DNA of 64,000 nucleotides from Candidatus Aquidulcis sp. (GCA_020723345.1 DYJA01000011.1:43349-107348), one strand, 5' to 3'. Counted from the stretch's first letter, positions 1,904-55,671 are shown. Numbers and translations: made by a program. Notes: generated from the sequence alone by a model not told the origin.

Positions 1904-1919
1904 TGTTTCCGCCCCCTCC

Positions 1920-3941: not shown

Positions 3942-4240
3942 ATTCGTTCACCTTGCGCGCAATCGCGCAGATCGAAGAACCACGTCCAAAATGTGAATCG
4001 TCGTTTGGGCAAACACCGCCAACCCGCTTGCCGCACCCACTCCGCCAGCCGCTGGGCGCCATAGCGCACAAAGAGCCAGCGCAACTCCAACCAGTCGCCC
4101 CACGCCAACGTTCGCTCGATCACCGTAAACGCGCTGCGCTCGGGGTCGAGGTCTTCCAAGTTGTATTCTTGGAAAAAAGGGCGCAGACTCAATGGGATGC
4201 CTGCTGGCGTCATTTCGAGTTGATCATCCTGACCTGCCAT
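3929..4240 (-). CDS. Small partner protein of the AbiEii-like gene (resembles the DUF6922 family from memory); putative antitoxin/regulator
   Basis: 103 aa. ..[51 protein letters not shown]. Overlaps both the hsdM stop and the AbiEii start, which suggests translational coupling. Confidence 0.45.
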
Positions 4241-18268: not shown

Positions 18269-18269
18269 G

Positions 18270-30538: not shown

Positions 30539-30548
30539 GAATTACACA

Positions 30549-37200: not shown

Positions 37201-38239
37201 TACGGTTCGTTACGAAAGCCAACTGGCGCAGATGGCAATGGGTGACCAACGCCGTCCACAACGCCCGCGTGAGATCGAAGATCGCGTGGTCGTGCAATTG
37301 GAAGACCTGGCTCGTTTTCGCCTGATCGCGCATTGCTTGGCTTATGGCAACCCCAATTTTGATTGGGGGCAAGGTGTTAGGGAAACCGGCGCGTTACTCT
37401 ACGAGGATGTGCCGTCCAACAATCCACCGGGCGCAAACCCGGACAGCAAGGCAGTCTACCGTTTGATGGTTGAACCGACCGGTGTATCGCGGAATGGAAT
37501 ATTGGTCAACCCAATGACGAACAAGCCCGCCAGTCCCAAATATTGGGATTTGACCCAATTGGCTGAAATCCCCAGTCTCTTGGACGCGATCAACCAGTTC
37601 AACTACAAAAAACACGCAGTCGGCAATGTAGAGGATACGCTGGATGACTATCGCATCCAAACGACATTGGATAAAGCGATTGATGCCGATTGCGTGCGTC
37701 GGATTGCCAAGGGATTCCCGTGGCTGCCTCCTGCTGGGATGAGCAAGGATCAAGTACAGGAGGCGCAAAAGCGCGTGGCGCAGTATCTGCGGTACCAAGC
37801 CGAGGTCAAAGTATGGGAGACTCGATTGTTGTCACAAGACTATCGAGATGCGGTGATGCCAAGCACGCCGCCCAAAGCAGTCGCGCCTGAAATTCAACGC
37901 GAGGCGGATTTGCTCACGATGTTGATCCTCGTGCTGAACGAAGAAATCCGCACCCTGAATGGACAGATTGAACGATACGGAGGCGAGTGGGATTGGGCGT
38001 TTGCTGAACCGGAGGAAATTCAGCCGGAGCAAGTGCTCCCTCCGATGCCAGAGACGACTGTGCCTCAGGGCGTTACCTGTCCAAACTGCGGCACTAGCAA
38101 TTCGGAGGATGCGAACTTTTGCAAGAAATGCGGCGCGCAGTTAGGTGCAAAACTCGCCAAGTGTCCGAAATGCGGCAGAGAGTACGACTTGGCGGACACA
38201 AGTTTCTGCCCGAAGGATGGGAGTAAGTTGACGCCATGA
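34235..38239 (+). CDS. Giant tubulin/FtsZ-like (Pfam Tubulin_2-type) protein with helical body and C-terminal double zinc ribbon
   Basis: SD AAAGGAGG. T1-like SLIIGLGGTGVTV, ILAFDTE, T4/tubulin-signature-like ITGSFVGGTGAGLFVDIAHL. C-terminus CPNCG..CKKCG..CPKCG..CPKDG. Confidence 0.8.
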   Translation: MAIKPVPSLIIGLGGTGVTVATYVKKDLLEISETDGVPAGVQILAFDTEATNRVHVGGWGRPRRTGERRTGPVELGHGEYVHIGGNVLDLAKEVAEGQHYYLGTWWNASQYLAENLPADLWHLNKGAGQFRQFGRMALFQNRVTVTNMLTAAMNSIRRGAPGATDLYVHITGSFVGGTGAGLFVDIAHLASVVAKQQNLDKVSVRGYFVLVDAFLGTPQVKLEDPRLKSTYQAQAYACLRECSRLVSATDYATGYPMNYADEGDPELLRGRITKRPYDAVYLFDGHRIYNPLTTSRIEDGIAPTIADAIVAHVDAKSGAKFTSHTVNSDKQRTALKIPADIPTFGALGTFTFVLPIFHIVEEWTHRLAKEALDELLVPTDWSKDTGLPNSPLATNKRGGMKAEPLNDGADKGREWLRRSSPTAFTQDLGEQGARYSRSATRSEVEGEIRNRTTEDWIKLLKPEDQSVMTSDNIERATIVLESDITKEKVKRGGQMEGNEYYVHPSPGGSDRDQADQVANEVRRIFKILIGEEDDDTGRRSGGRVKVTLDELKATHIKKFRTQLRVLIEETLNGLKGADAFEAKAGKLGYMIAFLRQVRDDLQQAQLAIEKTEGAQRSTGTSRQRQTGSRREESETLLKELIEKMQKGGGLFGANRKEYIAKAQQYLQILKSEIAERVAFETVRDLVLTADNTLAEVNGWAEALGHRNVKEGGVYALVLEGRANNQHDRERNAEARVREQVSDLTYENGKYSDYVSRGGVANSRTQLKQILGELAWTAHIDENTGRIRLGLNLGEKGEQEFSSEKGQNIGAVNGKIFLERCRAVFKPAWDDLSILRYLMDNYGPARQKTMEDLAKLIHQKTGPLLEVRGDQPLPANFLRVNLESVGEAQAGSDQQQQAQARSVFMQQLADELGRLNHVQVERTVIEDGKPETSKFVDYADSMDRFKLGFVYFSELNQPKNIATFSGGVSDYRAYPVKQRTYLHIFPAEEHTVRYESQLAQMAMGDQRRPQRPREIEDRVVVQLEDLARFRLIAHCLAYGNPNFDWGQGVRETGALLYEDVPSNNPPGANPDSKAVYRLMVEPTGVSRNGILVNPMTNKPASPKYWDLTQLAEIPSLLDAINQFNYKKHAVGNVEDTLDDYRIQTTLDKAIDADCVRRIAKGFPWLPPAGMSKDQVQEAQKRVAQYLRYQAEVKVWETRLLSQDYRDAVMPSTPPKAVAPEIQREADLLTMLILVLNEEIRTLNGQIERYGGEWDWAFAEPEEIQPEQVLPPMPETTVPQGVTCPNCGTSNSEDANFCKKCGAQLGAKLAKCPKCGREYDLADTSFCPKDGSKLTP

Positions 38240-38383
38240 GTTGGAGGATGCGTTCCACTATAAGCCAACTGCCATCAGCATTGTCAGAATAGCAAGAATC
38301 CGTTACTCACAAGAGGATTGGCATGTGGGAAAATAGAATTGAATGATCACATGCCAGTCCGATTGGAACACTGCGAGGTGTCC

Positions 38384-40690
38384 ATGTCTGCCGGGCTGCC
38401 ACAATTTCTTAACGATCGCGAAGCAGATAGAGATTTGCTCGATTTTACCCCATATACTGAGACACTGGTGGATATCGTTCGGGATGAGAATAACCACGGT
38501 CCCTTGGTGATTGGACTTTTCGGGACTTGGGGTAGCGGCAAAACATCATTGATGCATTTTGTCGAACACGCATTGCAACACCCTTCATCCGAGAATGTGC
38601 AACAGTTTCGGATTGTCTGGTTTGACGCTTGGAAATACGAAAAGGAAGAATCGCTATGGCGTGCGTTGTTGCTTCGCGTTGTTGATGCTCTGCGGGATCG
38701 CAACGAGGAAGGTGAGGATACCACTTCATTCAATCGTCGTCAACGAATTGAGAATCTTGAGCAACGCTTGTACCGTGACGTTGAATGGGAAGAAAAAGCC
38801 GGAATTACGATAGACTGGGCAAAGTTGGGACGGTTTGGTTTAGGTGGCGCAATCAAGCTATCCTTTGCTTTTGTGCCAGGTCTATCGCATCTGGTCGAAA
38901 CCGTAAAGTCAGCGCAGGGCGCGCTGGGCAAAGCTGAAGGCATAAACGATCTGTTCGATACTTTTCGGCGGAATGTGGTCACGCATCACCAAGCGCAGCT
39001 AAACTCAATCGAACAGTTTCAAAATGAATTTGGAAAACTCGTTCAGCAGTATGTTATATCCCAAAATCAGCGTCTAGTTGTGTTTATTGATGATCTTGAC
39101 CGTTGTCTACCCGAAAAGGCAATTGAAGTCCTTGAGGCAATCAAACTCTTTCTCGACGTCAAAGGATGTATTTTCTTGCTGGGACTTGACCAAGACGTAA
39201 TTGCGCGGGGCATCAAAGTCAAGTACCGAGGGTTTGCTAGTGCATCGGCAAATGATGAATCCGCGATACCTATTGATGGCGTGCAGTATCTTGAAAAGAT
39301 TATTCAACTGCCCTTTCGTTTGCCCAAGATTGAGCCGCAGGAGATGAAACCATTTATCAAGAATCTGTTGGAATTTTCCGATGTCCGCTGCGCGGATGTT
39401 TTTGCTGAAGGGTTGGAAACTAATCCACGCAAGGTCAAACGCGCAATCAATATTTTCCTATTTGTCTCTCGTCTGGCTGAGCGTCGCAAACTCCGAATTT
39501 CCCAGGTTCGCCTCGCCAAGGTGATTGTCATCTATCACAATCACCCGATCTTGTATGATCGCTTACGCAAAAACCCCGCACTGTTGCGGGATGTAGAAAA
39601 ATATTTTGAGGAGCAACTCCCCAAGTCTTCCAAAGATCAAACGCACAATCTCGAAGCTCCAACGAACCAAACTATTACTCCACCAGTTGGAGAGCATTTG
39701 CTTGCCGACGATGCTTTAAGGCGCGTGATGACTCTCTATTTGCGAGACTACGATGCTTGTTTTCAAACAGCAGACTATACCGAACTCGACTCGTATTTCA
39801 CATTGACTCGCGGAACTGTTATTGATCCTCTGGTACAATCCGCTAAAAATGTTACGACTATGTCAACGGCACTCGGTTTTCCGATTCCGATTTTCGTGCG
39901 GATTCCCGAAGGCGAATTTCGGATGGGCACTTCGGATGAAGATATTTCACGCTTGGCGCAAATGCCAGGAACGCAAACCTGGGCGAGAGAATCGCAAGAG
40001 AAAGAATACTTTAAAGAAGAGAAACCGGATCGTTGCGTATATCTGAATGAATTCGAAATCGCGAAATACCCTGTGACCTATGAACAATATCAGGCGTTCA
40101 TTAAGGCGACGCGACATCCTGCTCCAAGAGATTGGTCAGGTGATTTGTTTCGGGATGGGTTTGAATCGCATCCTGTGGCCAATGTGAGTTGGATTGATGC
40201 TATAGCATACTGTCGTTGGTTGACCGAACAATTACGCAACATCAATAATCTACAGAACAACGAAATAGTTCGGTTGCCGATCGAAGCAGAATGGGAAAAA
40301 GCCGCTTCATGGGATGCTTTGGGACAAAAGAAACGCATTTGGCCATGGGGCGACACTTGGCAAAGTGAAAACTGCAATACAAGAGAAAAAGGAATCGGCA
40401 CCACAACTCCTGTTGGAAAATTCTCGCCCAAGGGAGATAGCCCTTATGGCATTGCCGACATGGCAGGCAACGTGTGGGAATGGTGTGCCGATTGGTACCA
40501 ATCTGATTATTATGAAAATGCTTCCAACAGGAATCCCTATAACGCATCTGCTGGACAATATCGTGTCGCACGAGGGAGTTCGTGGTATGGCGATCAGGCA
40601 GATGCAAGATGCGCTTTTCGGTTTTCGTATGCTCTCAATGTAAGTGGTTTTGATTTGGGTTTTCGTTGCGTCAAAGGTCAACCAGTGTAA
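38384..40690 (+). CDS. KAP-family P-loop NTPase fused to a C-terminal formylglycine-generating-enzyme (FGE/SUMF1, C-lectin-like) domain
   Basis: Walker A GLFGTWGSGKTS. Walker B/KAP box VVFIDDLDRCLPEKAIEVLEAIKLF. FGE motifs HPVANVSWIDAIAYCRWL, GNVWEWCADWY, VARGSSW. Start uncertain: 38384 has a GAGG SD, and the track gives TTG at 38318. Confidence 0.85.
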   Translation: MSAGLPQFLNDREADRDLLDFTPYTETLVDIVRDENNHGPLVIGLFGTWGSGKTSLMHFVEHALQHPSSENVQQFRIVWFDAWKYEKEESLWRALLLRVVDALRDRNEEGEDTTSFNRRQRIENLEQRLYRDVEWEEKAGITIDWAKLGRFGLGGAIKLSFAFVPGLSHLVETVKSAQGALGKAEGINDLFDTFRRNVVTHHQAQLNSIEQFQNEFGKLVQQYVISQNQRLVVFIDDLDRCLPEKAIEVLEAIKLFLDVKGCIFLLGLDQDVIARGIKVKYRGFASASANDESAIPIDGVQYLEKIIQLPFRLPKIEPQEMKPFIKNLLEFSDVRCADVFAEGLETNPRKVKRAINIFLFVSRLAERRKLRISQVRLAKVIVIYHNHPILYDRLRKNPALLRDVEKYFEEQLPKSSKDQTHNLEAPTNQTITPPVGEHLLADDALRRVMTLYLRDYDACFQTADYTELDSYFTLTRGTVIDPLVQSAKNVTTMSTALGFPIPIFVRIPEGEFRMGTSDEDISRLAQMPGTQTWARESQEKEYFKEEKPDRCVYLNEFEIAKYPVTYEQYQAFIKATRHPAPRDWSGDLFRDGFESHPVANVSWIDAIAYCRWLTEQLRNINNLQNNEIVRLPIEAEWEKAASWDALGQKKRIWPWGDTWQSENCNTREKGIGTTTPVGKFSPKGDSPYGIADMAGNVWEWCADWYQSDYYENASNRNPYNASAGQYRVARGSSWYGDQADARCAFRFSYALNVSGFDLGFRCVKGQPV

Positions 40691-40726
40691 ATAAACGAAT
40701 CAAGAATAACTTGATAGGAGCCTTTT

Positions 40727-41686
40727 GTGCCTACTGGTATTCCCGATATTTCTCAAATGGTACTTCGTGAAATCTTGGCAGGTAAGTTAGTACCCTTTTT
40801 AGGAGCAGGTGCTAGTCTGTGTTCACGCTCCAGAACTTCAAGTTCTTCTAAACCAGGTACGTATCCTCCCAGTTCACAGGATCTATGTAATTCCTTGGCG
40901 CACAGGTTTGCTTACCCAAGTGGATCTGAAACACCTAATTTGATGCATGTATCACAATATGCCGAAGTCTTTAACGGACGGGTAGCACTATATGACGAAT
41001 TGCACAAGCATTTCGAACCCAATTATCAACCGACTGTACTACATTACTTTCTTGCTAATCTTCGCCGAACACTAATTAGGAAACATTTGCCTTTTCATCC
41101 AATGCTTATCGTTACAACAAACTATGACACGATGCTTGAGAGTGCATTCGATAAAGCGAACGAACCCTACGACCTAGTGTATTACACGGCAGATGGAAAA
41201 GACAAAGGGTTGTTCAAACATATTCCATACGGTGGCAAGGAGGAAACCATTTATAAATTGAACGAATATGATAAATTTCCTGTAAAATACGGCGAGATCC
41301 AACGCACAATTATCCTAAAGATGCATGGGCACGTGAATAGAGCCGAAAGCGCAAAGGATAGCTATGTTATAACAGAGGATCATTACATCGATTATTTGGC
41401 CTATAATGACAAAGTAAGTCCCCTGCCAGCAATACTATGTCAGCAATTAAAGCTTAAACATATTCTTTTTTTGGGGCATAGTTTAAATGATTGGAACCTT
41501 CGCGTTATTTTACGCCGTGTCTGGGCAGATGTTGAATTTGACTCTCGGTCATGGGCGATTCAACTTGATCCTACAGCCATTGATCAAGAATTGTGGAGGA
41601 GACGCAACGTGATTGTTTTTCCAAGCGATCTAGTTTCATTTGTTGCCAATCTCAGAGCTTCTTTCAGCGGATACAAACCCGGGTGA
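40727..41686 (+). CDS. SIR2-like (SIR2_2) domain protein, predicted NAD-consuming effector
   Basis: SD TAGGAG then GTG 40727. LVPFLGAGAS, IVTTNYDTMLE, ILKMHGHV (catalytic His), ILFLGHSLNDWN. Confidence 0.85.
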   Translation: MPTGIPDISQMVLREILAGKLVPFLGAGASLCSRSRTSSSSKPGTYPPSSQDLCNSLAHRFAYPSGSETPNLMHVSQYAEVFNGRVALYDELHKHFEPNYQPTVLHYFLANLRRTLIRKHLPFHPMLIVTTNYDTMLESAFDKANEPYDLVYYTADGKDKGLFKHIPYGGKEETIYKLNEYDKFPVKYGEIQRTIILKMHGHVNRAESAKDSYVITEDHYIDYLAYNDKVSPLPAILCQQLKLKHILFLGHSLNDWNLRVILRRVWADVEFDSRSWAIQLDPTAIDQELWRRRNVIVFPSDLVSFVANLRASFSGYKPG

Positions 41687-41691
41687 AAATT

Positions 41692-44600
41692 ATGTCCATT
41701 GCACATACCATAGCGAAACCATATAAAGGGCTAGCGCCTTTCTCTGAATCTGACGCGAATATTTTTTTTGGTCGCGAGCAAGAATGTGAGGTGGTTGCTG
41801 CCAACCTACTAACTTCGCGTTTCACTGTTGTTTATGGTGCAAGTGGTGTTGGTAAAAGTTCGCTTTTACGTGCTGGCGTTGTCCATTATCTAAGTACGCT
41901 TGCACAAAAGCGTTTGCAGAGTAGCACTGAAGAACGTAATACTCCGGAATTCATTGTTATTGTTTTTGATAGGTGGTCGGGAAATCTAGTTGGTGGTCTA
42001 TCAGAGCAAATTAGACAAGTACTATCGCCTTTTGTACAGTCCTATGATCTTGGATTCCAGCCAAACGATTCTATTCCAGATTTGGTAGACAAGTGGAAAC
42101 AAGCAACGCGGTCTACACTTCTTGTAATTCTAGATCAATTTGAAAGCTACTTGGCTTATCATCCTGAGGTAGATGAGTTTACCACTCAGTTATCTGACGC
42201 CATACGAACAGAAGGGCTCGGGATAAACTTCTTGATTTCGATCCGTGAGGACTCACTGGCAAAATTGGATCGATTTGAGGGTTATATTCCCAATCTCTTT
42301 GATAATAATATACGCATCAATCGGCTCGGTCGTACACCCGCGAAAGAAGCAATTGAAAACCCAATTCGCAAATTCAATGAAATAAACAAAACTGAAATTC
42401 GAATTGAGCCGGAACTTGTTGAAACCGTGTTAAATGAAGTGACCGCTGGTAAGATTATGGGGGTAGTTGAAGGTTCCAGATTCTCTATTTCCAGCAAGGA
42501 TGAGGTGGATGCCCCTTATTTGCAACTGGTAATGGAACGACTGTGGAAAACAGAAATAGAGGCTGGCTCCGATGTATTGCGTTTGAAAACGCTTCACGAA
42601 GTAGGTTATGCCGAGTCTATTGTCAGAAAACACCTTGACGATAAGATGGAGGAATTAGATACGCCAGAGCAAAATATTGCCGCGCAAATCTTTCGCTATC
42701 TCGTAACACCATCAAGAGCGAAGGTTGCCTATTCAGCGAGTGATCTTGCTGCTTACACCAACTTGAAAAAAAATGAAATTACTCTAGTGCTCGAAAAACT
42801 GTCGAGTACTGATTCAAGAATTGTCCGTTTGCTTTCTCCTCTATCTAATCAACATCCTGCGATCCGATATGAGATTTTTCACGATGCTCTTTCGGCTGCG
42901 GTTCTAGATTGGCGAGCAAGATTCGTTCAGAAACAAAACGCGTATATTCAAAAACAGAGAAGTATTGCTTTTGCGCGTGAGCTAGCGGCAAATTCAATTT
43001 CCCAGATGCAACAAGATCAGGATCTATCAGTTCTTTTAGCTCTTGAGGCACTCCGTATAGAGGAAATTCCCCAAGCCTACAGTGCTCTCAGACTGGCAGT
43101 AGTGCGTTCCTATATGCGATATATTATTCGTGATCACCTCAGACCCGTGAAATGTGTAGCCTACAGTCCTGATGGACAATATTTGCTGACGGCTAGCGAT
43201 GATTGCACCGCGCGGATCTGGACAGCTCGGTATCGCCCAGTAAATTTGATGCAACATGAAAGCCCTGTGCTCGGCGCAGTGTATAGTCCTGATAGCAAGT
43301 TTATCTTGACTTTTTCAAGCAAGCGCGCATTCGTATGGACTAATAAAGGAAACCTATCACACGAATTGAAAGGACATTCTGAAGATATTACCTGTGCTAC
43401 GTTTAGTGCTGATGGTCAATTTGTCGCTACGTCCAGCAAGGACATGACTGCAAGGGTTTGGACTACTAAAGTAGGAACACCGATCGCTCAAATGGTAGGT
43501 CACTCGCGCTCAGTTAATTGTATTACCTTCAACCCTGACGATGAATTTGTTGCAACCGGTAGCGATGATGGTATGGTCAAAATATGGGAAGCTAGTAGCG
43601 GTAAGCTTCGAACAGAATTACGTGGACACGAAGGGCCTGTTGACCACATTTCGTACTACCCGAAGGGCATTGCAGACAACGAACTTCTTCTTACTTCAGG
43701 ACAGGATAATATTGCGCGAGTATGGAATACCAGGTCAGGTCTGTGCCTTCAAGCATTACGTGGCCATACCGGTATTATTACTAGTTCACTATTTAACAAC
43801 GATGGCACTCGTATTTTGACAGCCAGCGAAGATGGCACCGTGAGAATTTGGGATACCCATATGGGAATGCTCCTGGCTGTTTTGCGTGGGCATACAGATC
43901 CCGTGCTTGACGTTCTTTTCACTCCCGATGGTAAATTCATAATTACAACCAGCGGCGACGAAACAAGCCGGGTGTGGGATGCCATAATTGGTGATTGCAT
44001 ATTGGTATTGAGGGGGCATCGCGGGGCAGTAAGAACGGCAACTGTTAGTGGAAAGGGCAACATCATCGTAACTGGCGGTGAAGACGCAAAGGTGAGGATT
44101 TGGCAGTCACACCTAATGCGTGCCCCTCTCGAGCTTAGGGGATATGAAGATCAATTGCTCGGTATTTCTTTCGGCCACGACAATAATTGTGTTGTTGCTT
44201 TTGGCACAAATGCAATTGCTCGAACATGGGAGGTCACCTCAGGCAAGTCGCGTTTAGTACTTGATGGACATGAATCGCGATTACGTTCTGTGTCCTTCAG
44301 CTACCATAACAACCAGATTTTGACGTCTAGCGATGATGGGACAGCGAGATTGTGGAGTGCTACTACAGGGCAGTCCTTGGGAACTTTGCGTGGACATCTT
44401 GGATCAGTGTACAACGCGCTTTTTAGCCCAGATGATAGATTGATAGTAACTAGTGGAGTCGACAAAACTGTACGAATTTGGGATTTGGACAAGAAGGACT
44501 TGAATTCCCAGATATTGGTGCAAGGGGATAATATCAGTTGCCTTTCCATTAGTCATAATGGTAAATTTCTGGCTGTTGCTCGTGGCAACCAAAGTGCCGT

Positions 44601-45234
44601 TGTGGAGATCTGGAATCTGGTTGGGCGGCGATGTACAGCAAAGTTGTCAGGTCACAATTTAACAATTTATGGTGTCAATTTTAGTTACAATGACGAGTAT
44701 CTAGTAACTGCGAGTGATGATAGCAAAGTGTGTGTTTGGGATGTGTCTACTGGGAAATGCCTGAAAAATTTATCTACTCACAAGAGTTGGGTCAGACAAG
44801 CCATATTTAGTCCAGACAACAAATATATTGCAACAGCCGGTGGGGACAATACGGCCAAAATCTGGGACGCGGAAACTGGCCAAGTTACTGTCGATGTGCT
44901 ACACGCAGCTCCGGTGAATACTGTAGCATTTAGCCCCAATGGACAACTTGTTGTTTCGGCAAGTTTGGACAATACTGTGAAATTATGGGATGTTTTGTAT
45001 GGTTGGCTACTTGAAGAGTTTCACGGACATACTAAACCTGTGCAGTGTGTTGCATTTAGTCCAGATGGAAACTATGTCGCCACAGCAAGTCTGGATGGGA
45101 TAGGACGATTATACTCAATCAAAGAATATCAGCCCGAACAGATTCGAACATTGGCTCGTGAGAAAATATCTAGAAACAAAAAAGAGCTCACTCCTGCTGA
45201 AAGAAGAAGATATTTGCACGACTGGGTAACTTGA
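41692..45234 (+). CDS. STAND-class NTPase (NACHT/nSTAND-like) with about 16 WD40 repeats
   Basis: ATG lies 5 nt after the SIR2 stop. YKGLAPFSESDANIFFGRE. Walker A VVYGASGVGKSS. Walker B LLVILDQFE. Repeated GH..V..v.FSPDG..laTaS.D.T.r.W units. Confidence 0.9.
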   Translation: MSIAHTIAKPYKGLAPFSESDANIFFGREQECEVVAANLLTSRFTVVYGASGVGKSSLLRAGVVHYLSTLAQKRLQSSTEERNTPEFIVIVFDRWSGNLVGGLSEQIRQVLSPFVQSYDLGFQPNDSIPDLVDKWKQATRSTLLVILDQFESYLAYHPEVDEFTTQLSDAIRTEGLGINFLISIREDSLAKLDRFEGYIPNLFDNNIRINRLGRTPAKEAIENPIRKFNEINKTEIRIEPELVETVLNEVTAGKIMGVVEGSRFSISSKDEVDAPYLQLVMERLWKTEIEAGSDVLRLKTLHEVGYAESIVRKHLDDKMEELDTPEQNIAAQIFRYLVTPSRAKVAYSASDLAAYTNLKKNEITLVLEKLSSTDSRIVRLLSPLSNQHPAIRYEIFHDALSAAVLDWRARFVQKQNAYIQKQRSIAFARELAANSISQMQQDQDLSVLLALEALRIEEIPQAYSALRLAVVRSYMRYIIRDHLRPVKCVAYSPDGQYLLTASDDCTARIWTARYRPVNLMQHESPVLGAVYSPDSKFILTFSSKRAFVWTNKGNLSHELKGHSEDITCATFSADGQFVATSSKDMTARVWTTKVGTPIAQMVGHSRSVNCITFNPDDEFVATGSDDGMVKIWEASSGKLRTELRGHEGPVDHISYYPKGIADNELLLTSGQDNIARVWNTRSGLCLQALRGHTGIITSSLFNNDGTRILTASEDGTVRIWDTHMGMLLAVLRGHTDPVLDVLFTPDGKFIITTSGDETSRVWDAIIGDCILVLRGHRGAVRTATVSGKGNIIVTGGEDAKVRIWQSHLMRAPLELRGYEDQLLGISFGHDNNCVVAFGTNAIARTWEVTSGKSRLVLDGHESRLRSVSFSYHNNQILTSSDDGTARLWSATTGQSLGTLRGHLGSVYNALFSPDDRLIVTSGVDKTVRIWDLDKKDLNSQILVQGDNISCLSISHNGKFLAVARGNQSAVVEIWNLVGRRCTAKLSGHNLTIYGVNFSYNDEYLVTASDDSKVCVWDVSTGKCLKNLSTHKSWVRQAIFSPDNKYIATAGGDNTAKIWDAETGQVTVDVLHAAPVNTVAFSPNGQLVVSASLDNTVKLWDVLYGWLLEEFHGHTKPVQCVAFSPDGNYVATASLDGIGRLYSIKEYQPEQIRTLAREKISRNKKELTPAERRRYLHDWVT

Positions 45235-45280
45235 CTCCAAAATCCTATCAAGCAATTTCCGACCGAACCGGAGGATCACC

Positions 45281-48200
45281 ATGTCCCGTAACCTATCTCA
45301 CTTGAGCAAATTCATCGCATTGTTGTTCGTTGGCGCGCTGTTGCTGGTGTCTGCCAGCACGGCGTTTGGGCAAACCAATTCCGCTGTCACCTTTCAGCGC
45401 GTAGTCGCGCCTAATGTGCTTCCGTACGGGCAGGGCGAATTTACCGTAACCCTCACGGTGAGCGGCAACAGCGCCGGGTGCGGCACCCAAGTCGCGCGTA
45501 AACCACTAGACATTGTATTGGTGATTGATCGCTCCAGCAGTATGGGGAACTTGTTAGGTTTTCTTGGCGGCAAATCCAAGCTGGACAGCGCCAAAGAAGC
45601 CGCCAAAGTCTTTCTCTCCAAAGTCAATCTGGGGAACGACAAGGTCGCGCTGGTTCAATTCAACGAAGCGGCTAATTTGGCTCAACCATTGGATACCAAT
45701 CGTCAGACATTGGACAAGGCGATTGATGGCTTGGTCTCGTCCGGTAACACCAGTCTTGATCGTGGGGTTGACGTGGCGCGCCAGGAACTTAAAAGCGCGC
45801 GCCGTCGTTCAAACACCAATGGTGTGATCATCCTGCTTTCCGACGGCGAAAGCGATGAGACGAGCGCGCGGAATGCGGCTGATGCGGCGAAGAGGGATGG
45901 CTTGCGCGTGATTACAATTGGTTTGGGGAGTGGCGCGAATCAAAATTTGTTGCGTTCACTGGCTTCTCAATCCAGCGACTATTACTATTCGCCGGACACG
46001 AATAATTTGACTTCGATTTATGAAAAGATCGCCGAGAGTGTCAAGCAATTCGTCGCGGCAACTGATCTGACGCTCAAGCATACGATTGAAGTCAGCGCAT
46101 TTCAGATTGTCCCCAACTCAATCTCGCCAGCCCCCGCGACGATTTCCGTGGACACCATCACTTGGAAACTCGATTCGCTCGGCGATACCCAGCAGACTTT
46201 TACGTACAAACTCAAACCTATCGCGCAGGGGAATTTATTGATTGATCGAGGTGACACACTCACTTTTACGCAGTGTGAAAAGGCGCCTAGTACTATCTCC
46301 GAAAAGCCGGGTTTGCCCGTGCAAGTGCTCGCGCCGACGGCGACTGCCACGCGTCCTCCAACGTCCACGCGGACGGCGACCCCCTTGCCTACTCCAACAC
46401 CCACTTTCAATGAAATGGTTCAACAAACAACCTGTGATTATGGCACGAGTTTGCCGCCGTGGTTGCTCTGTCTCGTGCCGTTGCTGATGTTGTTCTTCAT
46501 CGTGTACTTCTTGCGAATTGTAAGGGAATTGCAAGAAAAGCGCAAACCGTGTCCGCTGATTTGGTGGCTTTTGCTCCCGCTCGCGTTCATTTTGCTTTGC
46601 TTGATCCTAAACCAACTCTTGAACGCGGCATGTGTCGGCGGCGAATCAGTTTATTTCTGGAAAATTGATTCGTTTGGAGGTTCGGGTATTTACGTCAGTA
46701 GTCGTGACGGTGTGCGTCCTGCCCTGCCCTTCCGCGAAGTGAATTCGAGCAGCGGGTGCGTGGCGTGCCACGCCGTCTCCTCGACAACGCATCGGATCGC
46801 GGCGATTAGCGGCGGCGGCGTTGGCCCCGTCGTCGTCTATGGCTTGGACGGCAAACGGATTGATATACCCGGCGTGACAGGATCGTTCTTGAATTGGTCG
46901 CCGGATGGAACCAAACTTGCTATTTCAACAGATCGCCGGCAAATCGTGATTATGGATGCGGATGGCGGCACGATCACTCCACTCGCCGGCGCAAGTGAAA
47001 GTAATGTGGCGCAGTTGATGCCGGCGTGGTCACCCGACGGAACTACGATTGCCTTTGTGCGCTCGAACGATCCTTCTGGAACCTATCGCGCGGATTCGGC
47101 TTCGGATATCTATACTGTGCCCGCTACTGGTGGGGTTGCCAAGCCGCTGCCCGGCGCAAGCGGCAGAGGATTCAACTACTATCCTGCCTATTCGCCGGAT
47201 GGCAGATGGATCGCTTTTACGCATCATATTAGCGGCACGACGACGTACTCGGATCCCTACGCCGAGATCTATATGATTCCGGCGGAAGGCGGCACACCGA
47301 TTCGGCTTGCCGCGAATGATACCCAAGACGGCAGACGCTTGACCGGCATCAGCAACTCGTGGCCCACCTGGTCGCGCGACGGTCAAACGCTGGCGTTTAA
47401 CAGCAAGCGCAACGGCAACCAGTACGATATTTTCACCACGCGCATCAACCCGGACGGAACTTCGGGTCCGGCAATGTTGTTGTCCAGCGCGGCAGATGGA
47501 CGCGCGTTCGAGCATTTGCCATTCTGGGGCGAGCCCCCAAAAATGGATCCATGGGCGGGAGTGTTGGGGCTTTGGCCGTGCCTCATTCCATTCCTGCTGA
47601 TTCCGATCCTGTACTTGCTTTGCTGGTACTTCACGCGTCGTCGGATCGACATTATTGAGGTAGATGCAACCCCTGTTCGTCCAAGACCGGGACCTTTGCC
47701 ACCACTTGTGCTTAATCCTACTTGGCAAGTTGCGCCCGCGCTCATCATCGGTGTAGGCGGAACCGGACGCTGGGTGTTGACGCATCTGAAAAAGTCTTTG
47801 CTTGATGGCGGAATCGGCAAACTGCCGCCGGGTGTGCGCTTTGTTCTGCTTGATACTTCGGAAGAAGAAACGAACACGCTGATGGACGCTAACGGTAAAC
47901 CGCAAGCGGTCGAATTTGCCGGCGTGCGGTTGGAACCGAGCGAAATGTTGCTCCTGCAGGATAGTCTCGAAAATGTCGTGCGAACAATGCGCGCCAACCC
48001 AAATGTCGAGCCGGCATTGCAAGGTTGGCTTCCGACCGAACGCTACGCTCAACTACCCGCCGGACAGGTCAACCTTGCGGAAGGTACGCGCGGACGCCGC
48101 CCGATGGCGCGCGCCGGTCTGATAAAGAAAATGCTCGGCGAAGCCGAACGGCAGACTGGTTCGACGACGGACGCTAAACAGATTTGGAATCTGCTTGCCA

Positions 48201-50629
48201 ATGGCGCGCGCGATGCGCTTGACGGTCGCCAAACGCGCGTGATTGTGATCGGTTCGCTCGCGGGTGGGATGAGCGGCACGCTATTCGATCTAGCGCACTT
48301 GGCGCGTTTAGCGGGACAGCAAACTATTCCCGCCGGTGGCACTGTCACAGTGGAAGGATACTTGGCGACTGCCGGCGTATTCAATCAAACACCCGGCAAT
48401 TCCAGCCAGCGTCAGATCAACACGTTTGCGGCAATGCGCGAATTGCAGCGCTTCCAACTCGCGCAAGGCAGAGCGTATCCGATGGCATATCGCGCCAATG
48501 CCAAGTTGCCGCTGGATAGCGTATGCGACCGGCAATTGTTCGACGATCTCTTTTTCTTTGGCACGGGGGGACTAGCAGAGAGCGGACAGGACAAAGATAC
48601 CCAACCTTGGGCAACGACGTTTGCCGCGATGGCAGATATCATTGCATTTCGCTTGGATCGCGGGACTGGCGCGGGAGGCGAAGGTGACTATCGTCGGCAG
48701 ATCCAAGCCCAGGGCGCGATCTATCAACAACAACGCAATGCGGCGTTCATCGGCGGCGCGGGAAGTTTCGTCTATCGCTTGCCGATGAAAGATATTGTGG
48801 ATCAAATCAAACTGCGCTGGGCGCGCCAATTGTTGCACGAGTTTATCCAAGGCACGAATGTGCCCAAGCAACCCGGCACACCTGCGCCGAACGCCGCCGA
48901 AGACGCCGCACGCTTTTTGCAAGGCGATTATGGTTGCGGCACACTCCCCGGTGGAATGAATGTGATCGAATCGCTTTGTCTTGGTTCGCGTCCCAGCGTG
49001 GACCGCGCGGATTTGAATCGCTTGCCCGAACCAGATAGCGTAGCCAATAGTTTCCGCACATATTTGCAACATGCGCTCAAGTTGATTTTGAATGGCGCGA
49101 AAGCGAGCAAGACAGTGCCGGTAGGACGTGTCCGGTTTGCTTTGCAATTCCTCGATCAAGTGGCGCACTATCTTGCGCAAGCGGAGAAGGTGGCCGGCGA
49201 AGCGCAAGAATCGGCGAGGTCACAAGAGAGTGCCGCCGCGTATGAACGCGCGCGCAAGATGGCGGCGCAGTGGCATGCTGAAACGCAACTAGCCAGCAAT
49301 AGCTTGCGTAAACAACGTGAGTTGCTCGAAGGCGCGGCAGGCGCGCCCGGCAAGCCGCCCCTCATTGGCGTCTATCAGCGTGTCGCCGATTTGGAAACCC
49401 AAGCCCGCCATCGCCGCGCGCAAATGGATCGCGTGGCAGTGCGCGAGTACTTGTGGTGGCGCGTCCGCGATGTCACACAATCACTGGATGATCCAAACAA
49501 TCGGATTGATCTGGCGGATGAATGGTACCATCTTGCGGCGGACAAGCACATCCAGGAATATCACGAACGCTTTTATTGGGAATTCTCGCCCGAAGGCGCA
49601 CCGTGTCTGTCACTCGTTACTTTCGAGGGAAATGCAATGACGCTAGTTCCCGAAACATCGGAAAAGTTTGTCCAAGAGGTATTGCGACTGGGCAATCACG
49701 TTGTGCGTGAAATGTGGGAAACGGTGACCCTGGCGGATATAATGTCCGGTCGTCAAATGATCGCCGATCAAGAACAATCGGCGCACACGACCGCGCGAAT
49801 GTGGGTGACGGCGATGCCTCACCTCTTGTCGCGGCAAAAGACAAATATCTGGAATGCCGCGTTTGGCATTCCACAAATTGCACGCGCGCGAGCACAAGAA
49901 CTGGTCAATGTGTTTGCCAATCTCGGCGGTGTGCAACAACAGATCCCCGGCAGTCTCAATCCGTGCCCAACCAGCATAGTGCCTTTGACCGATCAGTACG
50001 CCACTGTGTTGATCCGCACGCTTGATCTCGTCGCGGTTGCGGATGTGCCGGAAATGGACGACGCGCGTCGGGTATACGAACAATCTATGCGGACGACCGT
50101 TGCCGGTGCAGAGGGCGCAGAAATGCAAACTGTCTTTGCGGCGGAACGCAACGCGCTGACATTCGAAAGACGCCTGCCCGATCCCAATATTTTCCGTCTG
50201 CCGATCCGCCAGTTCCACCCGCTCGTGGTGATGGCGTTGGAAAATCAGCCGCGTGTGCGCTTGTTCGGCTTGGCGTTTGCGGCGGGCTGGGTGCGCGTGC
50301 CTGCGCAAGACGGCGCGATCACGCTCCACGTGCCCGTCGGCGCGACGTACACCTTGGCGGAAAAGAAAGCCGAAGTCACACTCGCGCCTGAAGTAGCCAC
50401 GCTCTACAATTTCTGTCAACACGGCGAATCCGCCGCGATTGACGCCATTCGCGCCGCAACCGATCAGCCCGACGAAGCGACGATTCAGGCATGGCAAGAG
50501 TACTACGCGCAATGGCACGATTGGCAAGGCGCGCCACCACTGGCGAACCAACCGCGCGAATTGCAAGACCTGGGCGCGTTGGCGGGCTTGGTCGTGTTCG
50601 ACAAACTCAAAGCGTATTTTGGACAATAG
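45281..50629 (+). CDS. 1782-aa fusion protein: signal peptide, vWA, 2 TM helices, PD40/TolB-like propeller (with a CxxCH motif), 1 TM helix, tubulin-like domain and helical body
   Basis: MIDAS LVIDRSSSMG and ILLSDGES. TM pairs at about 46450-46620 and 47555-47640. WSPDGTKLA, AWSPDGTTIAF and YSPDGRWIAF repeats. ALIIGVGGTGRWV, FVLLDTSEE, VIGSLAGGMSGTLFDLAHLA. The body is collinear with 34235-38239. Confidence 0.8.
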   Translation: MSRNLSHLSKFIALLFVGALLLVSASTAFGQTNSAVTFQRVVAPNVLPYGQGEFTVTLTVSGNSAGCGTQVARKPLDIVLVIDRSSSMGNLLGFLGGKSKLDSAKEAAKVFLSKVNLGNDKVALVQFNEAANLAQPLDTNRQTLDKAIDGLVSSGNTSLDRGVDVARQELKSARRRSNTNGVIILLSDGESDETSARNAADAAKRDGLRVITIGLGSGANQNLLRSLASQSSDYYYSPDTNNLTSIYEKIAESVKQFVAATDLTLKHTIEVSAFQIVPNSISPAPATISVDTITWKLDSLGDTQQTFTYKLKPIAQGNLLIDRGDTLTFTQCEKAPSTISEKPGLPVQVLAPTATATRPPTSTRTATPLPTPTPTFNEMVQQTTCDYGTSLPPWLLCLVPLLMLFFIVYFLRIVRELQEKRKPCPLIWWLLLPLAFILLCLILNQLLNAACVGGESVYFWKIDSFGGSGIYVSSRDGVRPALPFREVNSSSGCVACHAVSSTTHRIAAISGGGVGPVVVYGLDGKRIDIPGVTGSFLNWSPDGTKLAISTDRRQIVIMDADGGTITPLAGASESNVAQLMPAWSPDGTTIAFVRSNDPSGTYRADSASDIYTVPATGGVAKPLPGASGRGFNYYPAYSPDGRWIAFTHHISGTTTYSDPYAEIYMIPAEGGTPIRLAANDTQDGRRLTGISNSWPTWSRDGQTLAFNSKRNGNQYDIFTTRINPDGTSGPAMLLSSAADGRAFEHLPFWGEPPKMDPWAGVLGLWPCLIPFLLIPILYLLCWYFTRRRIDIIEVDATPVRPRPGPLPPLVLNPTWQVAPALIIGVGGTGRWVLTHLKKSLLDGGIGKLPPGVRFVLLDTSEEETNTLMDANGKPQAVEFAGVRLEPSEMLLLQDSLENVVRTMRANPNVEPALQGWLPTERYAQLPAGQVNLAEGTRGRRPMARAGLIKKMLGEAERQTGSTTDAKQIWNLLANGARDALDGRQTRVIVIGSLAGGMSGTLFDLAHLARLAGQQTIPAGGTVTVEGYLATAGVFNQTPGNSSQRQINTFAAMRELQRFQLAQGRAYPMAYRANAKLPLDSVCDRQLFDDLFFFGTGGLAESGQDKDTQPWATTFAAMADIIAFRLDRGTGAGGEGDYRRQIQAQGAIYQQQRNAAFIGGAGSFVYRLPMKDIVDQIKLRWARQLLHEFIQGTNVPKQPGTPAPNAAEDAARFLQGDYGCGTLPGGMNVIESLCLGSRPSVDRADLNRLPEPDSVANSFRTYLQHALKLILNGAKASKTVPVGRVRFALQFLDQVAHYLAQAEKVAGEAQESARSQESAAAYERARKMAAQWHAETQLASNSLRKQRELLEGAAGAPGKPPLIGVYQRVADLETQARHRRAQMDRVAVREYLWWRVRDVTQSLDDPNNRIDLADEWYHLAADKHIQEYHERFYWEFSPEGAPCLSLVTFEGNAMTLVPETSEKFVQEVLRLGNHVVREMWETVTLADIMSGRQMIADQEQSAHTTARMWVTAMPHLLSRQKTNIWNAAFGIPQIARARAQELVNVFANLGGVQQQIPGSLNPCPTSIVPLTDQYATVLIRTLDLVAVADVPEMDDARRVYEQSMRTTVAGAEGAEMQTVFAAERNALTFERRLPDPNIFRLPIRQFHPLVVMALENQPRVRLFGLAFAAGWVRVPAQDGAITLHVPVGATYTLAEKKAEVTLAPEVATLYNFCQHGESAAIDAIRAATDQPDEATIQAWQEYYAQWHDWQGAPPLANQPRELQDLGALAGLVVFDKLKAYFGQ

Positions 50630-53700: not shown

Positions 53701-54406
53701 GCTAGACAAATTCTCGGAAGTGGAAGGTACCGCGAGCGTGGCCCGCAATGCTTTATCAAAGGTGTTCAAAGAAAAGCGGGATTGGAATTTTTGGCTGATT
53801 GCAGAGCTCGACGAACAGAGATTGTTTCTTGAACGTGAAAGTCAGCACCGATATGCTGAGGGGTTAAGAGACACCTTTGACGAACGCCAAAGGTTCTTCA
53901 ACGGGATCCAAGTCATTTTGGAGGGTATTCAGAATAAGGTCTCTAGATATCCGGGCGAAGATGTGCAGCCAGACCTGGCCGCGTTAAAAAGACATATCGC
54001 TCAACGAGCAGAGACCCCCAACTTGACAGTTATCGATCTAGAAACGATCAGCAATTGGGCAAAGCGCGCTGACGAGGTGCAGCTGGCATATGATACATTG
54101 TTATACGCTCAAGAACAAAATGATATGGTCGCGGAAAATCTCCGCGAAATGAAAGCGGGAGAAATACCGACACCTGATCAGGTCAAAAAAGCTAGTCAAA
54201 GCATTGGTTTTCCAAGAGATATACTCGGAGACCTGTATGCTCGCTTGAGTAGCGAAGTGTTCTATATTTTCTACCGTCTTTGGCAAGACGAGCTAGAAAG
54301 GACAGCAATATTTGGTGATCTAGATGGATTGCGAAAGATAAAAGACGATGGATTGGAGAAATCCACTCTCGGCAAAAATCTCATAACCGCCCAAGTCAAG
54401 TCTTGA
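50708..54406 (+). CDS. 1232-aa protein: protein-kinase-like N-terminal domain plus a long coiled-coil/helical region
   Basis: G-loop LGKGAIGVVY. Lys in VVVKI. alphaC-like FVAERKILAEL. Catalytic-loop-like GDRKVGDLYWD. DFG-like VLDWN. Confidence 0.65.
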   Translation: MIIPDRVVDLKTQKTYEIDRGHEPLGKGAIGVVYPVKGPERDAVVVKIAFPDLSAETLADFVAERKILAELEATQRTPWAHEGQAPEYKDCKIILLERVKPDQQLVQIAKRLPGGVLAEETILQVGWQYAELLETLHGKLQRTTRGDRKVGDLYWDKTKQRLIVLDWNRALPMPKDEQERDPLIRQDLRVFGQLWAQLAMGQAVSTFADPFDDTNPAWQRLSIGARILIFKALNSHTAQGFQDATTLKDATVKQWQDFQRAQSQTKELLADALNLKKHADKESSLSRHAELARQVRVLADLVRRHTTRLPDKQAKELSELEIWAKESEQKEIEQLRAITKQLYQRVQSGSFKEAATLALTEIRKIDAAGDAEALALMALRRWSYLANWAWQGNRNDLVIGETARKIADALDAFEQKVGVARLLTIQEALAKLKAITDLRAAIQDAQRALAESNGLRELPEPMAGEIKPLELELQIREDWLADRHTDAVAQWEELKRIAEDQASDLRRGVLSLLGFDDYVRQREQEHYLERHAAEFKRQADAIFDLLAQSDGWINVSSRLEETIQYYRTNLKDRPGVAQERREDDELLNAIQELDRDFAGTLESRDEANALARIQSIVFPLHRSTLKETLHRQITESAIAHLERLAQGEWLDELEEGRRLLVAIREYGDLTVKEKNTESLEKTATRFAEWKQAYDELSQYGTAQIIIDPDPKYDKILQQAEKARVQLFDRRALATDKVEQHRVSVIRSVREAERMEQQISELIKAMEKLVRELENQSTQFEQENVQLGQFIGIVDRTRADLEDKLQEYQRSLEVKQSATQSAVDTFLENLKEAKKQQKSFPEADAVISRYNQLAQDLACVQKDTLPKIRATEREILKWQNIAAETQKAVQAVQDAVKKLADPQVETASQISQMAMPTLDQLSLASYLSGGLSAARMFNKDETRKYYELAQGQLANATQLEQERFRQLEEAAKWLEKFHQADLRLIEAWKIALNQWRLSALDKFSEVEGTASVARNALSKVFKEKRDWNFWLIAELDEQRLFLERESQHRYAEGLRDTFDERQRFFNGIQVILEGIQNKVSRYPGEDVQPDLAALKRHIAQRAETPNLTVIDLETISNWAKRADEVQLAYDTLLYAQEQNDMVAENLREMKAGEIPTPDQVKKASQSIGFPRDILGDLYARLSSEVFYIFYRLWQDELERTAIFGDLDGLRKIKDDGLEKSTLGKNLITAQVKS

Positions 54407-55479: not shown

Positions 55480-55671
55480 CTGCCGAGTCCTTGAAAATTG
55501 ATCGCACTTTACTCAGGGCGTGGAATGAATGAAACGCTGCGTTCTGCACCCTTTGCCGTAACTCCACAATACTTTTCCCCGCTATCTCACACGCGCTACG
55601 CCAGATCGGGGTGAATACTCCAACGAATCATCACAATTTGCAAGGTGTCATCATGGTCAAAGGATTTCGTA

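Follow-up and report, generated by a model that had tools for sequence, protein, structure and literature searches.

A paired SIR2 gene and nSTAND1-WD40 gene in Candidatus Aquidulcis sp., a probable two-gene immune module

The window analysed here, 64,000 nucleotides of Candidatus Aquidulcis sp. (GCA_020723345.1 DYJA01000011.1:43349-107348), carries two adjoining genes on its plus strand. The first (40727..41686) codes for a 319 amino acid protein with a stand-alone defence-type SIR2_2 domain, a predicted NADase effector; its start codon is GTG, with AGGAG located 8 nt 5' of it. The second (41692-45234) starts with ATG and codes for an nSTAND1 NTPase of 1180 amino acids with 16 WD40 blades. 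As originally predicted, the SIR2 gene ends 5 nt before the STAND start: its TGA is followed by the spacer AAATT (41687..41691, plus strand) and the ATG at 41692. The genes are two ORFs in different frames, and this arrangement of a stop and 5 nt suggests a junction of the translational-coupling type. In relatives the two genes most often overlap by 4 nt (approximately 40 of 78 loci), and the other junctions are mostly 80 nt or less. A longer GTG start for the STAND ORF at 41593 is not supported, since homologues start 6–9 residues ahead of the conserved PYxGLxPF. Both gene junctions are supported by a second assembly, because window positions 38898-43307 are matched without any difference by a Logan contig from run SRR13164373. 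Neither a promoter nor a terminator was assignable at the locus. A perfect 10-bp inverted repeat was located, with its left arm (CTTGATAGGA; 40710..40719) in the 36-nt spacer between the stop of the upstream KAP-FGE gene and the SIR2 start, where it overlaps the AGGAG ribosome-binding site, and its right arm (TCCTATCAAG; 45243..45252) in the 46 nt that separate the STAND stop from the gene after it. This 10-mer occurs only four times in the 6.3-Mb genome, two of these bracketing the SIR2-STAND module, a bracketing which was spotted post hoc.

Pfam analysis of the SIR2 protein revealed SIR2_2 (PF13289; E-value=5e-22, 78.9 bits against a cut-off of 24.5). It possesses the motifs GAGAS (residues 26–30), TTNYD (129–133), which includes the catalytic N132, and MHGH (199–202), which includes the catalytic H200, as well as a family signature, DSYVITEDHYIDY, at residues 211–223. 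The original prediction presupposed that the catalytic Asn and His would be conserved on proper alignment; among 78 homologues G26, N132, D134, H200 and G201 are invariant. N132 and H200 line up with N133 and H171 of DSR2, within the TTNYD and KVHG motifs of DSR2 and ThsA. A Cys4 zinc module is absent from the sequence. DSR2, ThsA and KomC were the matches to PDB sequences, and with the AF2 model (pLDDT 91.5) the top 50 Foldseek matches were again KomC, ThsA and DSR2 (TM 0.57–0.65). With N132 and H200 invariant and a modelled fold nearest to these NADases, the SIR2 protein looks active, and it is probably an NAD-destroying enzyme. In some relatives it carries HTH, cyclase or TIR additions, with which a signalling or regulatory role would fit too.

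The NTPase module of the STAND protein (residues 1-402; 41692..42897, plus strand) belongs to the nSTAND1 clade, Pfam giving nSTAND1 (PF20703) at residues 10-402 with 152.8 bits against a cut-off of 27.1. Since the NTPase begins at residue 10, the protein is without an N-terminal effector or adaptor domain, and no Death-like or EAD domain was found on it either. Its motifs are Walker A GASGVGKS (49–56), Walker B ILDQFE (146–151) and SIRED (183–187); the first two, like the three SIR2 motifs above, had been read as intact at the outset, and all five are present. Among 55 homologues G52, G54, K55, S57, D148, Q149, E151, R185 and D187 are invariant. Using the AF2 model of the NTPase (pLDDT 91.2), Foldseek returned Orc1/Cdc6, CED-4, Apaf-1, NLRP2, MalT, NRC3 and NOD2 with probability 1.00; global TM-scores were low (0.3–0.45), as expected because of the multi-domain hinges. 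Model and matches both display the STAND/Orc-Cdc6 arrangement of nucleotide-binding, helical and winged-helix domains. With its Walker A, Walker B and Arg residues invariant and a predicted STAND/Orc-like fold, the NTPase also looks active. A helical linker containing ARELAANSISQMQQDQDLSVLLALEALR (residues 403-477; 42898..43122, plus strand) leads to the predicted ligand sensor, the WD40 blades at residues ~478-1142 (43123..45117, plus strand). The original estimate of about 16 blades agrees with our count of 16, which was segmented by hand, and these probably form two propellers; the Pfam WD40 match is strong (E-value=6e-137), with many other beta-propeller families matching too. By sequence and segmentation the protein closes with a basic tail of 38 residues (1143-1180; 45118..45234 including the stop codon, plus strand).

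The original prediction would have failed had this SIR2 family not accompanied this STAND family in other genomes. An nSTAND1 gene lies directly downstream on the same strand in 79 of 80 homologous SIR2 loci, the contig of the 80th ending at that point, and a SIR2 gene lies directly upstream in 75 of 77 nSTAND1 homologue loci. The window pair, with SIR2 directly upstream on the same strand and a 5-nt gap, follows the same rule. The two genes are separate in all 78 analysable relatives, and the pair is found in at least 10 bacterial phyla. The SIR2 and STAND proteins co-vary, with a Mantel r of 0.85 that none of 999 permutations reached. The pairing is thus not due to chance, and represents a near-obligatory two-gene unit. 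Clustering of flanking ORFs in the first 80 loci gave no third conserved gene beside it, the largest neighbour family occurring in at most 13. Fusions are very rare: only one SIR2-nSTAND1 fusion was found among 10 extended proteins scanned from the top 150 representatives; P0152 is a single TIR-SIR2-nSTAND1 ORF, and nSTAND1-SIR2 fusions are present inside tandem arrays.

The C-terminal region of the partner STANDs appears, from its domains, to vary in a receptor-like manner, being WD40 in 36 of 54 and TPR, CHASE2, LytR_C, FGE-sulfatase or unassigned in the rest. The genome itself contains five SIR2-nSTAND1 modules with differing sensors. Of 31 related genomes, only 16 contain homologues, and none of these exceeds 46% identity; accessory genes of the immune type are typically distributed in this way. 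Viral contigs gave only one weak match, an IMG/VR contig that retains the pair at approximately 30% identity. Neither PADLOC, NCBIfam nor the literature searched provided a name or defence-system model for the pair; NCBIfam gave no match to it, and PADLOC gave none to the NTPase and only partial ones to the SIR2 protein (ThsA, PDC-S25, SIR2 and Dsr2 models). We propose that the SIR2-nSTAND1 pair is probably an immune module.

A transmembrane helix separates NTPase and sensor in 121 of 130 relatives (93%), as it does in all four other paralogous STANDs of the same genome. It is part of a coiled-coil and transmembrane segment of approximately 50 amino acids which precedes the linker in 93% of relatives and, in an alignment of the linker region, is absent from the window STAND. 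The maximum 19-residue Kyte-Doolittle value over the whole window protein is 1.07, against 2.1–3.2 in relatives. The window STAND, which lacks this segment, is predicted to be a rare soluble form with a cytoplasmic sensor. That a membrane-spanning STAND is the family norm could not have been inferred from the window sequence on which the original prediction was based. In most relatives the sensor lies beyond the membrane helix, unlike known cytoplasmic phage-protein sensors.

Perhaps the pair serves signalling or regulation: the STAND would sense an environmental or cell-envelope cue, and the SIR2 protein, instead of depleting NAD+, would change physiology or gene expression, either by modifying proteins in an NAD-dependent way (as a deacylase or ADP-ribosyltransferase) or by producing a signal derived from NAD. 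In 93% of partner STANDs the transmembrane helix precedes domains of sensor type, for example CHASE2, that are typical of signal transduction, some SIR2 partners bear HTH or guanylate-cyclase domains, and one paralogous pair of the same genome adjoins polA, outside any island. However, the Cys4 zinc module found in protein-deacylating sirtuins is absent from the SIR2 protein, its closest folds are all defence NADases, and other additions to SIR2 partners are death effectors, TIR and CHAT. The patchy distribution, foreign composition and sensor-diverse paralogues fit conflict genes, and no membrane anchor is present in the window copy. We regard a signalling role as possible, though rather unlikely.

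The GC content is 41.6% in the SIR2 gene and 44.3% in the STAND gene, against 57.7% for this Anaerolineae genome; at 42–44% GC, horizontal acquisition is the best reading of the module's composition. The upstream KAP-FGE gene is similarly low (46.5%), and the other genes in the window include type I R-M, AbiEii and CHAT-TPR. Since KAP-FGE, SIR2 and STAND share a foreign GC content and lie close together in the same orientation, they might constitute a single AT-rich cassette in which one SIR2 effector is common to two effector-less sensor NTPases. Pfam assigns no effector domain to KAP-FGE itself, and KAP NTPases can stand in for STAND NTPases before FGE-type (FGS) sensors (Kaur et al. 2021, PMC8195603). 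Yet not one of 159 SIR2-nSTAND1 loci has an upstream KAP homologue on the same strand, the only KAP-like match (L122) lying on the opposite strand, and neither a SIR2 nor an nSTAND1 gene lies within 5–7 kb of the four closest full-length KAP-FGE homologues (43–47% identity). In addition, the inverted repeat brackets SIR2 and STAND only. A three-gene cassette is accordingly improbable, and KAP-FGE lies outside the module.

A reading of the window copy as a decaying relic, a normally membrane-spanning receptor inactivated by loss of the segment that its relatives retain, is more improbable still. The NTPase does have a long branch in the tree, but both ORFs are intact, all invariant catalytic and NTP-binding residues are kept and each of the 16 WD40 blades can be recognised. 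The deletion preserves the reading frame and joins the NTPase cleanly to the linker, and eight further members from several lineages also lack the helix, among them L039 and L114, both with WD40. Least credible of all is that the pair is an integrated part of the surrounding tubulin-like/vWA/phosphoesterase locus (~23–58 kb): it does lie between two same-strand Tubulin_2 genes with short spacers and no terminator found, but the GC falls by 12–15 points exactly across the insert, relatives of the pair sit in quite different contexts, and no neighbour family exceeded 13 of the first 80 loci in the flanking-ORF clustering, which was general and not specific to Tubulin_2 or vWA.

The putative horizontally acquired two-gene module has a parallel in design in Avs5 (e.g. 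EfAvs5), which bears out the initial statement that SIR2 is fused to STAND NTPases among Avs proteins (PMC11897194, PMC12931631). In Avs5 a STAND whose sensor is C-terminal governs a SIR2 NADase of the defence type through oligomerisation; here too the effector comes before the NTPase, in the upstream gene where Avs5 has it at the N-terminus, and activation by oligomerisation would be expected. Of the Avs-type relation first suggested, the likeness in design stands, whereas family membership does not. Avs5 is one polypeptide, but the pair consists of two ORFs whose separation is conserved; its NTPase is of the nSTAND1 clade, its sensor is a WD40 double propeller instead of the SAMD9-like helical sensor of Avs5, most members of its family are membrane-spanning, and no Avs model was among the PADLOC matches to either protein at E ≤ 0.01. 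By analogy, the pair would work like Avs5 but is not a member of it. The NTPase clade is shared with the predicted nSTAND1 conflict systems of Kaur, Iyer, Burroughs and Aravind (2021, eLife 10:e70394, PMC8195603; PF20703). In their supplement, nSTAND1+BetaPropeller and nSTAND1+TM+BetaPropeller architectures are recorded, many with an effector gene directly upstream, the partners being TIR+DrHyd, TIR, caspase or EAD-coupled effectors where ours is SIR2; "SIR2" occurs there only seven times, and among the passages inspected never adjacent to nSTAND1. The main text does not name a SIR2-nSTAND1 pair, and the Death-like/EAD adaptor of those systems is missing here.

The closest solved folds, DSR2, ThsA (Thoeris) and KomC (KomBC), have the catalytic Asn/His arrangement in common with the window SIR2. 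DSR2 differs in having its own sensor, ThsA in its SLOG domain, which binds gcADPR from ThsB, and KomC in its partner, KomB; unlike the window SIR2, none is paired with a STAND NTPase. Thoeris itself was rejected, the 319 amino acid protein being a SIR2 domain only, without SLOG/STALD. The PADLOC ThsA match extends over only some of the SIR2 region, with residues 193–273 as its best stretch, and Pfam gave no TIR domain in the adjacent genes (KAP-FGE and nSTAND1-WD40). In SPARSA (short pAgo with SIR2-APAZ) a separate SIR2 NADase gene likewise adjoins a sensor gene, fused versions also existing, and the PADLOC "SIR2" model matches here. The SPARSA sensor is a nucleic-acid-guided Argonaute and its SIR2 protein bears APAZ; here the sensor is an NTP-driven STAND, and the SIR2 protein has no APAZ. 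Apaf-1 and bacterial Apaf-1-like STAND-WD40 proteins (PMC13581612) share a soluble STAND NTPase followed by two WD40 propellers as sensor, and their effector enzyme is a separate polypeptide recruited upon oligomerisation, as we propose for the window pair. They differ in employing an AP-ATPase clade NTPase and a caspase recruited via CARD, in place of nSTAND1, no adaptor and a SIR2 partner.

We infer that the SIR2 and STAND proteins contact one another physically, that the SIR2 protein has NADase activity which depends on oligomerisation, that the effector acts in trans and that the role is immune. The nSTAND1 protein would be both receptor and switch, its two cytoplasmic WD40 propellers binding a trigger, which would most likely be a phage protein or one from another invader, and the small stand-alone SIR2 partner would be produced in step with it via translational coupling. 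Binding of the trigger would release autoinhibition; the NTPase would then exchange or bind NTP and oligomerise, and the assembly would recruit or rearrange the SIR2 protein, which, once activated, would hydrolyse NAD+ and so arrest or kill the infected cell. Overall, we put at roughly 0.6 the probability that Candidatus Aquidulcis sp. possesses here a self-contained, horizontally acquired, two-gene NLR-like module, in which a SIR2 NADase would be switched in trans by STAND oligomerisation.

The SIR2 gene (40727–41686, + strand) has a GTG start codon with an AGGAG motif 8 nt upstream and a TGA stop, and encodes 319 amino acids; the STAND gene (41692–45234, + strand) begins with ATG and encodes 1180 amino acids. 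The original prediction that the former ends 5 nt before the latter is correct, TGA being followed by AAATT and then by the ATG at 41692, and every motif which it quoted for the two proteins was located. The reading frames of the two ORFs differ. Run SRR13164373 yields a Logan contig that is identical to window positions 38898–43307, so an assembly artefact confined to this genome cannot account for the junctions.

The SIR2 protein matches Pfam SIR2_2 (PF13289, E 5e-22). In an alignment of 78 homologues, which takes in four paralogues from the same genome, the invariant positions include G26, N132, D134, H200, G201, T216, E217, Y220 and D222. N132 (TTNYD) and H200 (MHGH), both unchanged throughout as anticipated from the intact NAD-pocket motifs, correspond in alignment to the catalytic Asn and His residues in DSR2 (H171) and ThsA. 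The SIR2 protein contains three cysteines and lacks a Cys4 zinc module; the best PDB matches of its AlphaFold2 model (pLDDT 91.5, pTM 0.92) are all defence NADases, namely KomC, ThsA and DSR2. From the invariant residues, the missing zinc module and the modelled fold, this is a stand-alone SIR2 domain of the defence type, without additional domains and apparently active.

The STAND protein contains an nSTAND1 domain (PF20703, 152.8 bits, residues 10–402) followed by WD40 repeats (E 6e-137), in which 16 blades were counted at about residues 478–1142, in agreement with the number first proposed. Because the NTPase begins at residue 10, there is no fused effector or adaptor domain. Walker A (G52, G54, K55, S57), Walker B (D148, Q149, E151) and R185/D187 are invariant in 55 homologues, and a model of residues 1–440 (pLDDT 91.2) matches Orc1/Cdc6 as well as the STAND proteins CED-4, Apaf-1, NLRP2, MalT, NRC3 and NOD2. 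The C-terminal regions of the partner STANDs vary in the fashion of receptors: 36 of 54 carry WD40, and the rest TPR, CHASE2, LytR_C, FGE-sulfatase or unassigned sequence.

The co-occurrence of the two families was tested from both sides and found to be near-obligatory. A scan with the SIR2 protein, limited to one genome per species, gave 80 loci with homologues of 38–46% identity; directly downstream on the same strand lies an nSTAND1 homologue (35–46% identity) in 79 of these, and at the remaining locus the contig stops 13 nt past the SIR2 match. With an alignment of the NTPase module (A3) as query, 79 further loci were recovered; 77 of them extend upstream by 1 kb or more, and in 75 of these a SIR2 homologue is directly upstream. 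Among the SIR2-side loci, about half have a 4-nt overlap between the genes and the others a short junction, and at none are the two genes joined in one frame without an intervening stop. Judged from record titles, the pair occurs in at least 10 phyla and is spread widely across soil and aquatic groups: Actinomycetota, Chloroflexota, Acidobacteriota, Verrucomicrobiota, Gemmatimonadota, Myxococcota, Cyanobacteriota, Bacillota (Heliomicrobium), Pseudomonadota (Gammaproteobacteria) and 'Rokubacteria'. Across loci, pairwise identity among the SIR2 proteins tracks that among the NTPase modules (Mantel r = 0.85, 0 of 999 permutations), a figure to which shared host phylogeny contributes; for distant pairs r is 0.48. 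Grouping of the flanking ORFs into families revealed no conserved third gene, the commonest family being present at 13 of 80 loci, in related actinobacteria. A phage-borne origin was considered and rejected, a search of IMG/VR having given a single distant match of about 30% identity, though the pair is kept there.

A HMMER pass over 1.84 billion representatives returned 3003 SIR2 relatives, 629 of them at E <= 1e-30 and the closest at 48% identity. Of the 150 best matches, about a third are longer proteins, and in nearly all of these the SIR2 domain is C-terminal and adjoins the expected start of the STAND gene. The N-terminal additions on those checked are TIR, CHAT-TPR, guanylate cyclase and HTH; proteins P0009, P0028 and P0065, of the same SIR2 subfamily as the window protein, bear N-terminal guanylate-cyclase, HTH or CHAT-TPR domains. 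Two loci (L090 and L091) have the order TIR, TIR-SIR2 (817 aa), a 105-aa ORF and nSTAND1-WD40 (1426 aa). One 1684-aa ORF, P0152, unites WD40, TIR, SIR2 and nSTAND1 in a single chain and is a rare Rosetta-stone fusion. The tight translational coupling of the genes, together with the abutment of the SIR2 C-terminus on the STAND start, suggests that the two products may form a stoichiometric complex, possibly a pre-formed one. Proteins of the type nSTAND1-...-SIR2 could be taken as a sign that SIR2 belongs with an upstream STAND; this was rejected because a tandem array (L089, JGI 3300082035), ordered SIR2, nSTAND1-x-SIR2 (a 994-aa fusion) and nSTAND1, shows that such fusions arise across neighbouring modules.

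Transmembrane (TM) segments were called by hydropathy only. Among 130 partner STANDs 620 aa or longer, 121 have a single strong hydrophobic helix, with a maximum 19-residue Kyte-Doolittle score of 2.1–3.2, usually after a basic stretch and just past the NTPase module. The window STAND has no such helix (maximum score 1.07). On alignment, it and the homologue at locus L039 skip about 50 residues of coiled-coil plus TM segment, so that the end of the NTPase (YEIFHDxL...LDWR) runs straight into a conserved helical linker (RELAAxxI...DxxLSxLLAxEA) which precedes the WD40 array. From this direct join and the missing helix, we predict that the window STAND is soluble and Apaf-1-like. In the NTPase tree, the nine TM-less members are interspersed with TM-bearing neighbours, a pattern suggesting repeated loss of the helix; the branch of the window NTPase itself is long.

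The genome (6.34 Mb, 57.7% GC) contains five SIR2-nSTAND1 modules with differing C-terminal regions, and the helix is present in all four of the others. These (loci L086–L088) lie at C81:45–3626, C70:179330–182421 (- strand), C66:164004–167020 (- strand) and C70:186701–191523 (+ strand); in the first three, the membrane-bearing paralogues span C81:1137–3626, C70:179330–181543 and C66:164004–166157. Their sensors comprise one FGE-sulfatase, one WD40 and two unassigned regions, WD40 being the sensor of the window copy. The + strand module on C70 is exceptional in having its SIR2 gene downstream, the order being nSTAND1-TM-WD40, a WD40 ORF and SIR2. On C81 the pair and polA overlap by 4 nt at the start of polA. 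By polA similarity, with identity to Chloroflexota MAGs reaching 85%, the host falls among uncultured Anaerolineae.

The GC content is 41.6% for the SIR2 gene, 44.3% for the STAND gene and 46.5% for the KAP-NTPase/FGE-sulfatase gene directly upstream, with GC3 values of 0.36 and 0.38 for the pair. Only 0.05% of the genome's 3-kb windows are equally AT-rich (<=44% GC); the stretch from 38318 to 45234 ranks among its most AT-rich. Homologues are found in 16 of 31 related genomes, none above 46% identity. With its low GC, patchy presence and best match of only 48%, the pair appears, from sequence comparison, to have been acquired rather recently from an unsampled donor of low GC. The spacers before SIR2 and after STAND contain the two arms of a perfect 10-bp inverted repeat, CTTGATAGGA (40710–40719) and TCCTATCAAG (45243–45252), which brackets exactly these two genes; the 10-mer, noticed after the fact, has only four copies in the genome, and the repeat may mark the ends of the imported unit. 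A scan for promoters and terminators gave counts near the shuffled expectation, from which no transcription unit could be assigned.

The upstream KAP-NTPase/FGE-sulfatase fusion (38318–40690) is QatA-like in PADLOC and NCBIfam, below the equivalog cut-off, and has no effector domain. We rejected it as a member of the module: a KAP homologue is upstream on the same strand at none of 159 pair loci, the sole KAP-like match (L122) being on the opposite strand. Around its four closest full-length homologues (43–47% identity), which come from three genomes of the same class, neither a SIR2 nor an nSTAND1 gene occurs within 5–7 kb, and it therefore looks like an independent single-gene unit.

The insert is flanked by two Tubulin_2 genes of a larger + strand locus. 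Upstream are genes for a calcineurin-like phosphoesterase (30465–31568), a vWA protein (31570–34197) and a Tubulin_2 (PF13809) protein ending in double zinc ribbons (34235–38239); downstream is a 1782-aa protein (45281–50629) with vWA, hydrophobic segments, PD40 and Tubulin_2. The setting is defence-island-like, defence-related genes and a transposase lying at 1–5864, 3261–3941, 14996–18346 and 21206–22639. The window encodes type I restriction-modification components (the N-terminal part of HsdR, HsdS and HsdM), an AbiEii-like nucleotidyltransferase, a 1116-aa TPR-CHAT protein and an IS4-family transposase. It also has a DUF4062-headed protein (55645–57585); a 2026 preprint reports DUF4062 to be a TIR-like NADase family in the anti-phage system Swarozyc (10.64898/2026.05.01.722283). 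For three large ORFs, at 50708–54406, 23455–25224 and 26146–28620 (1232, 589 and 824 aa), Pfam gave no match at E <= 0.001.

By analogy with known systems, the best-supported reading is that the pair is an NLR-like two-component module. The WD40 propellers would bind a trigger, upon which the NTPase would oligomerise; the STAND assembly would then switch on the separately encoded SIR2 NADase, and the resulting drop in NAD+ would lead to cell arrest or death. This scheme follows the logic of Avs5, a single-chain SIR2-STAND-sensor antiviral protein in which SIR2 activation requires STAND assembly (PMC11897194, PMC12931631), and that of the oligomerisation-activated SIR2 NADases in the ThsA, DSR2 and KomBC structures. 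An adaptor domain is absent from both the SIR2 and the STAND protein. The chief alternative is that the pair serves signalling, for which the membrane topology, CHASE2-type sensors and HTH or cyclase add-ons of relatives offer some support; the NADase-type fold, the death-effector add-ons TIR and CHAT, and the accessory, multi-paralogue distribution all speak against it.

To our knowledge, STAND/NLR-type receptors with SIR2 effectors are known only in single-chain form (Avs5), and the concept of a STAND combined with a SIR2 NADase is already established. The NLR-like module would resemble Avs5 in its way of working and differs from it in consisting of two polypeptides and in having a WD40 sensor. 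Its NTPase is also of another clade: no Avs model in PADLOC matched, and the window STAND is a member of the nSTAND1 clade as defined by Kaur et al. 2021 (PMC8195603). PADLOC v2 and NCBIfam r20 hold no model for the pair and gave no system or family name for either protein. In the Kaur 2021 supplement, the architectures nSTAND1+BetaPropeller and nSTAND1+TM+BetaPropeller are entered with TIR+DrHyd, TIR or caspase partners upstream; reading 'DrHyd' there as SIR2 was rejected, the label denoting DUF4062, and 'SIR2' appears just seven times in the supplement, in the accessible passages not next to nSTAND1 (PMC8195603). The main text names no SIR2-nSTAND1 pair (PMC8195603), Kaur 2020 does not mention SIR2, and our literature search found no description of a SIR2 gene paired with nSTAND1. 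A 2026 survey of prokaryotic STANDs scored defence association by fused effector domain or genomic context, and so would overlook an effector encoded by an adjacent gene (PMC13581612). The split, near-obligatory nSTAND1 two-gene form and its soluble derivative are undescribed in the literature and databases searched.

We tentatively propose, at odds of roughly three in ten, that SIR2-nSTAND1 pairs constitute a large unnamed branch of bacterial NLR-like immunity in at least 10 phyla, in which the effector is in all cases a SIR2 NADase made as a separate, translationally coupled protein, and sensing by the receptor normally takes place beyond the cytoplasmic membrane. The window copy would be an 'internalised' derivative, the same linker and WD40 scaffold having been made cytoplasmic by in-frame loss of the membrane segment. 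If this is true, a single receptor design would be able to watch either compartment, and the four membrane-spanning copies and single soluble copy of this genome would lend themselves directly to comparison. The clade combines near-obligatory pairing, invariant catalytic residues and highly variable sensors with an effector that is always the neighbouring gene. Confirmation would establish a further common module of immunity (or death signalling), would make it possible to test directly how a STAND activates a non-fused enzyme, and would permit NLR-like sensing outside the cytoplasm to be tested with soluble versus membrane-spanning paralogues.
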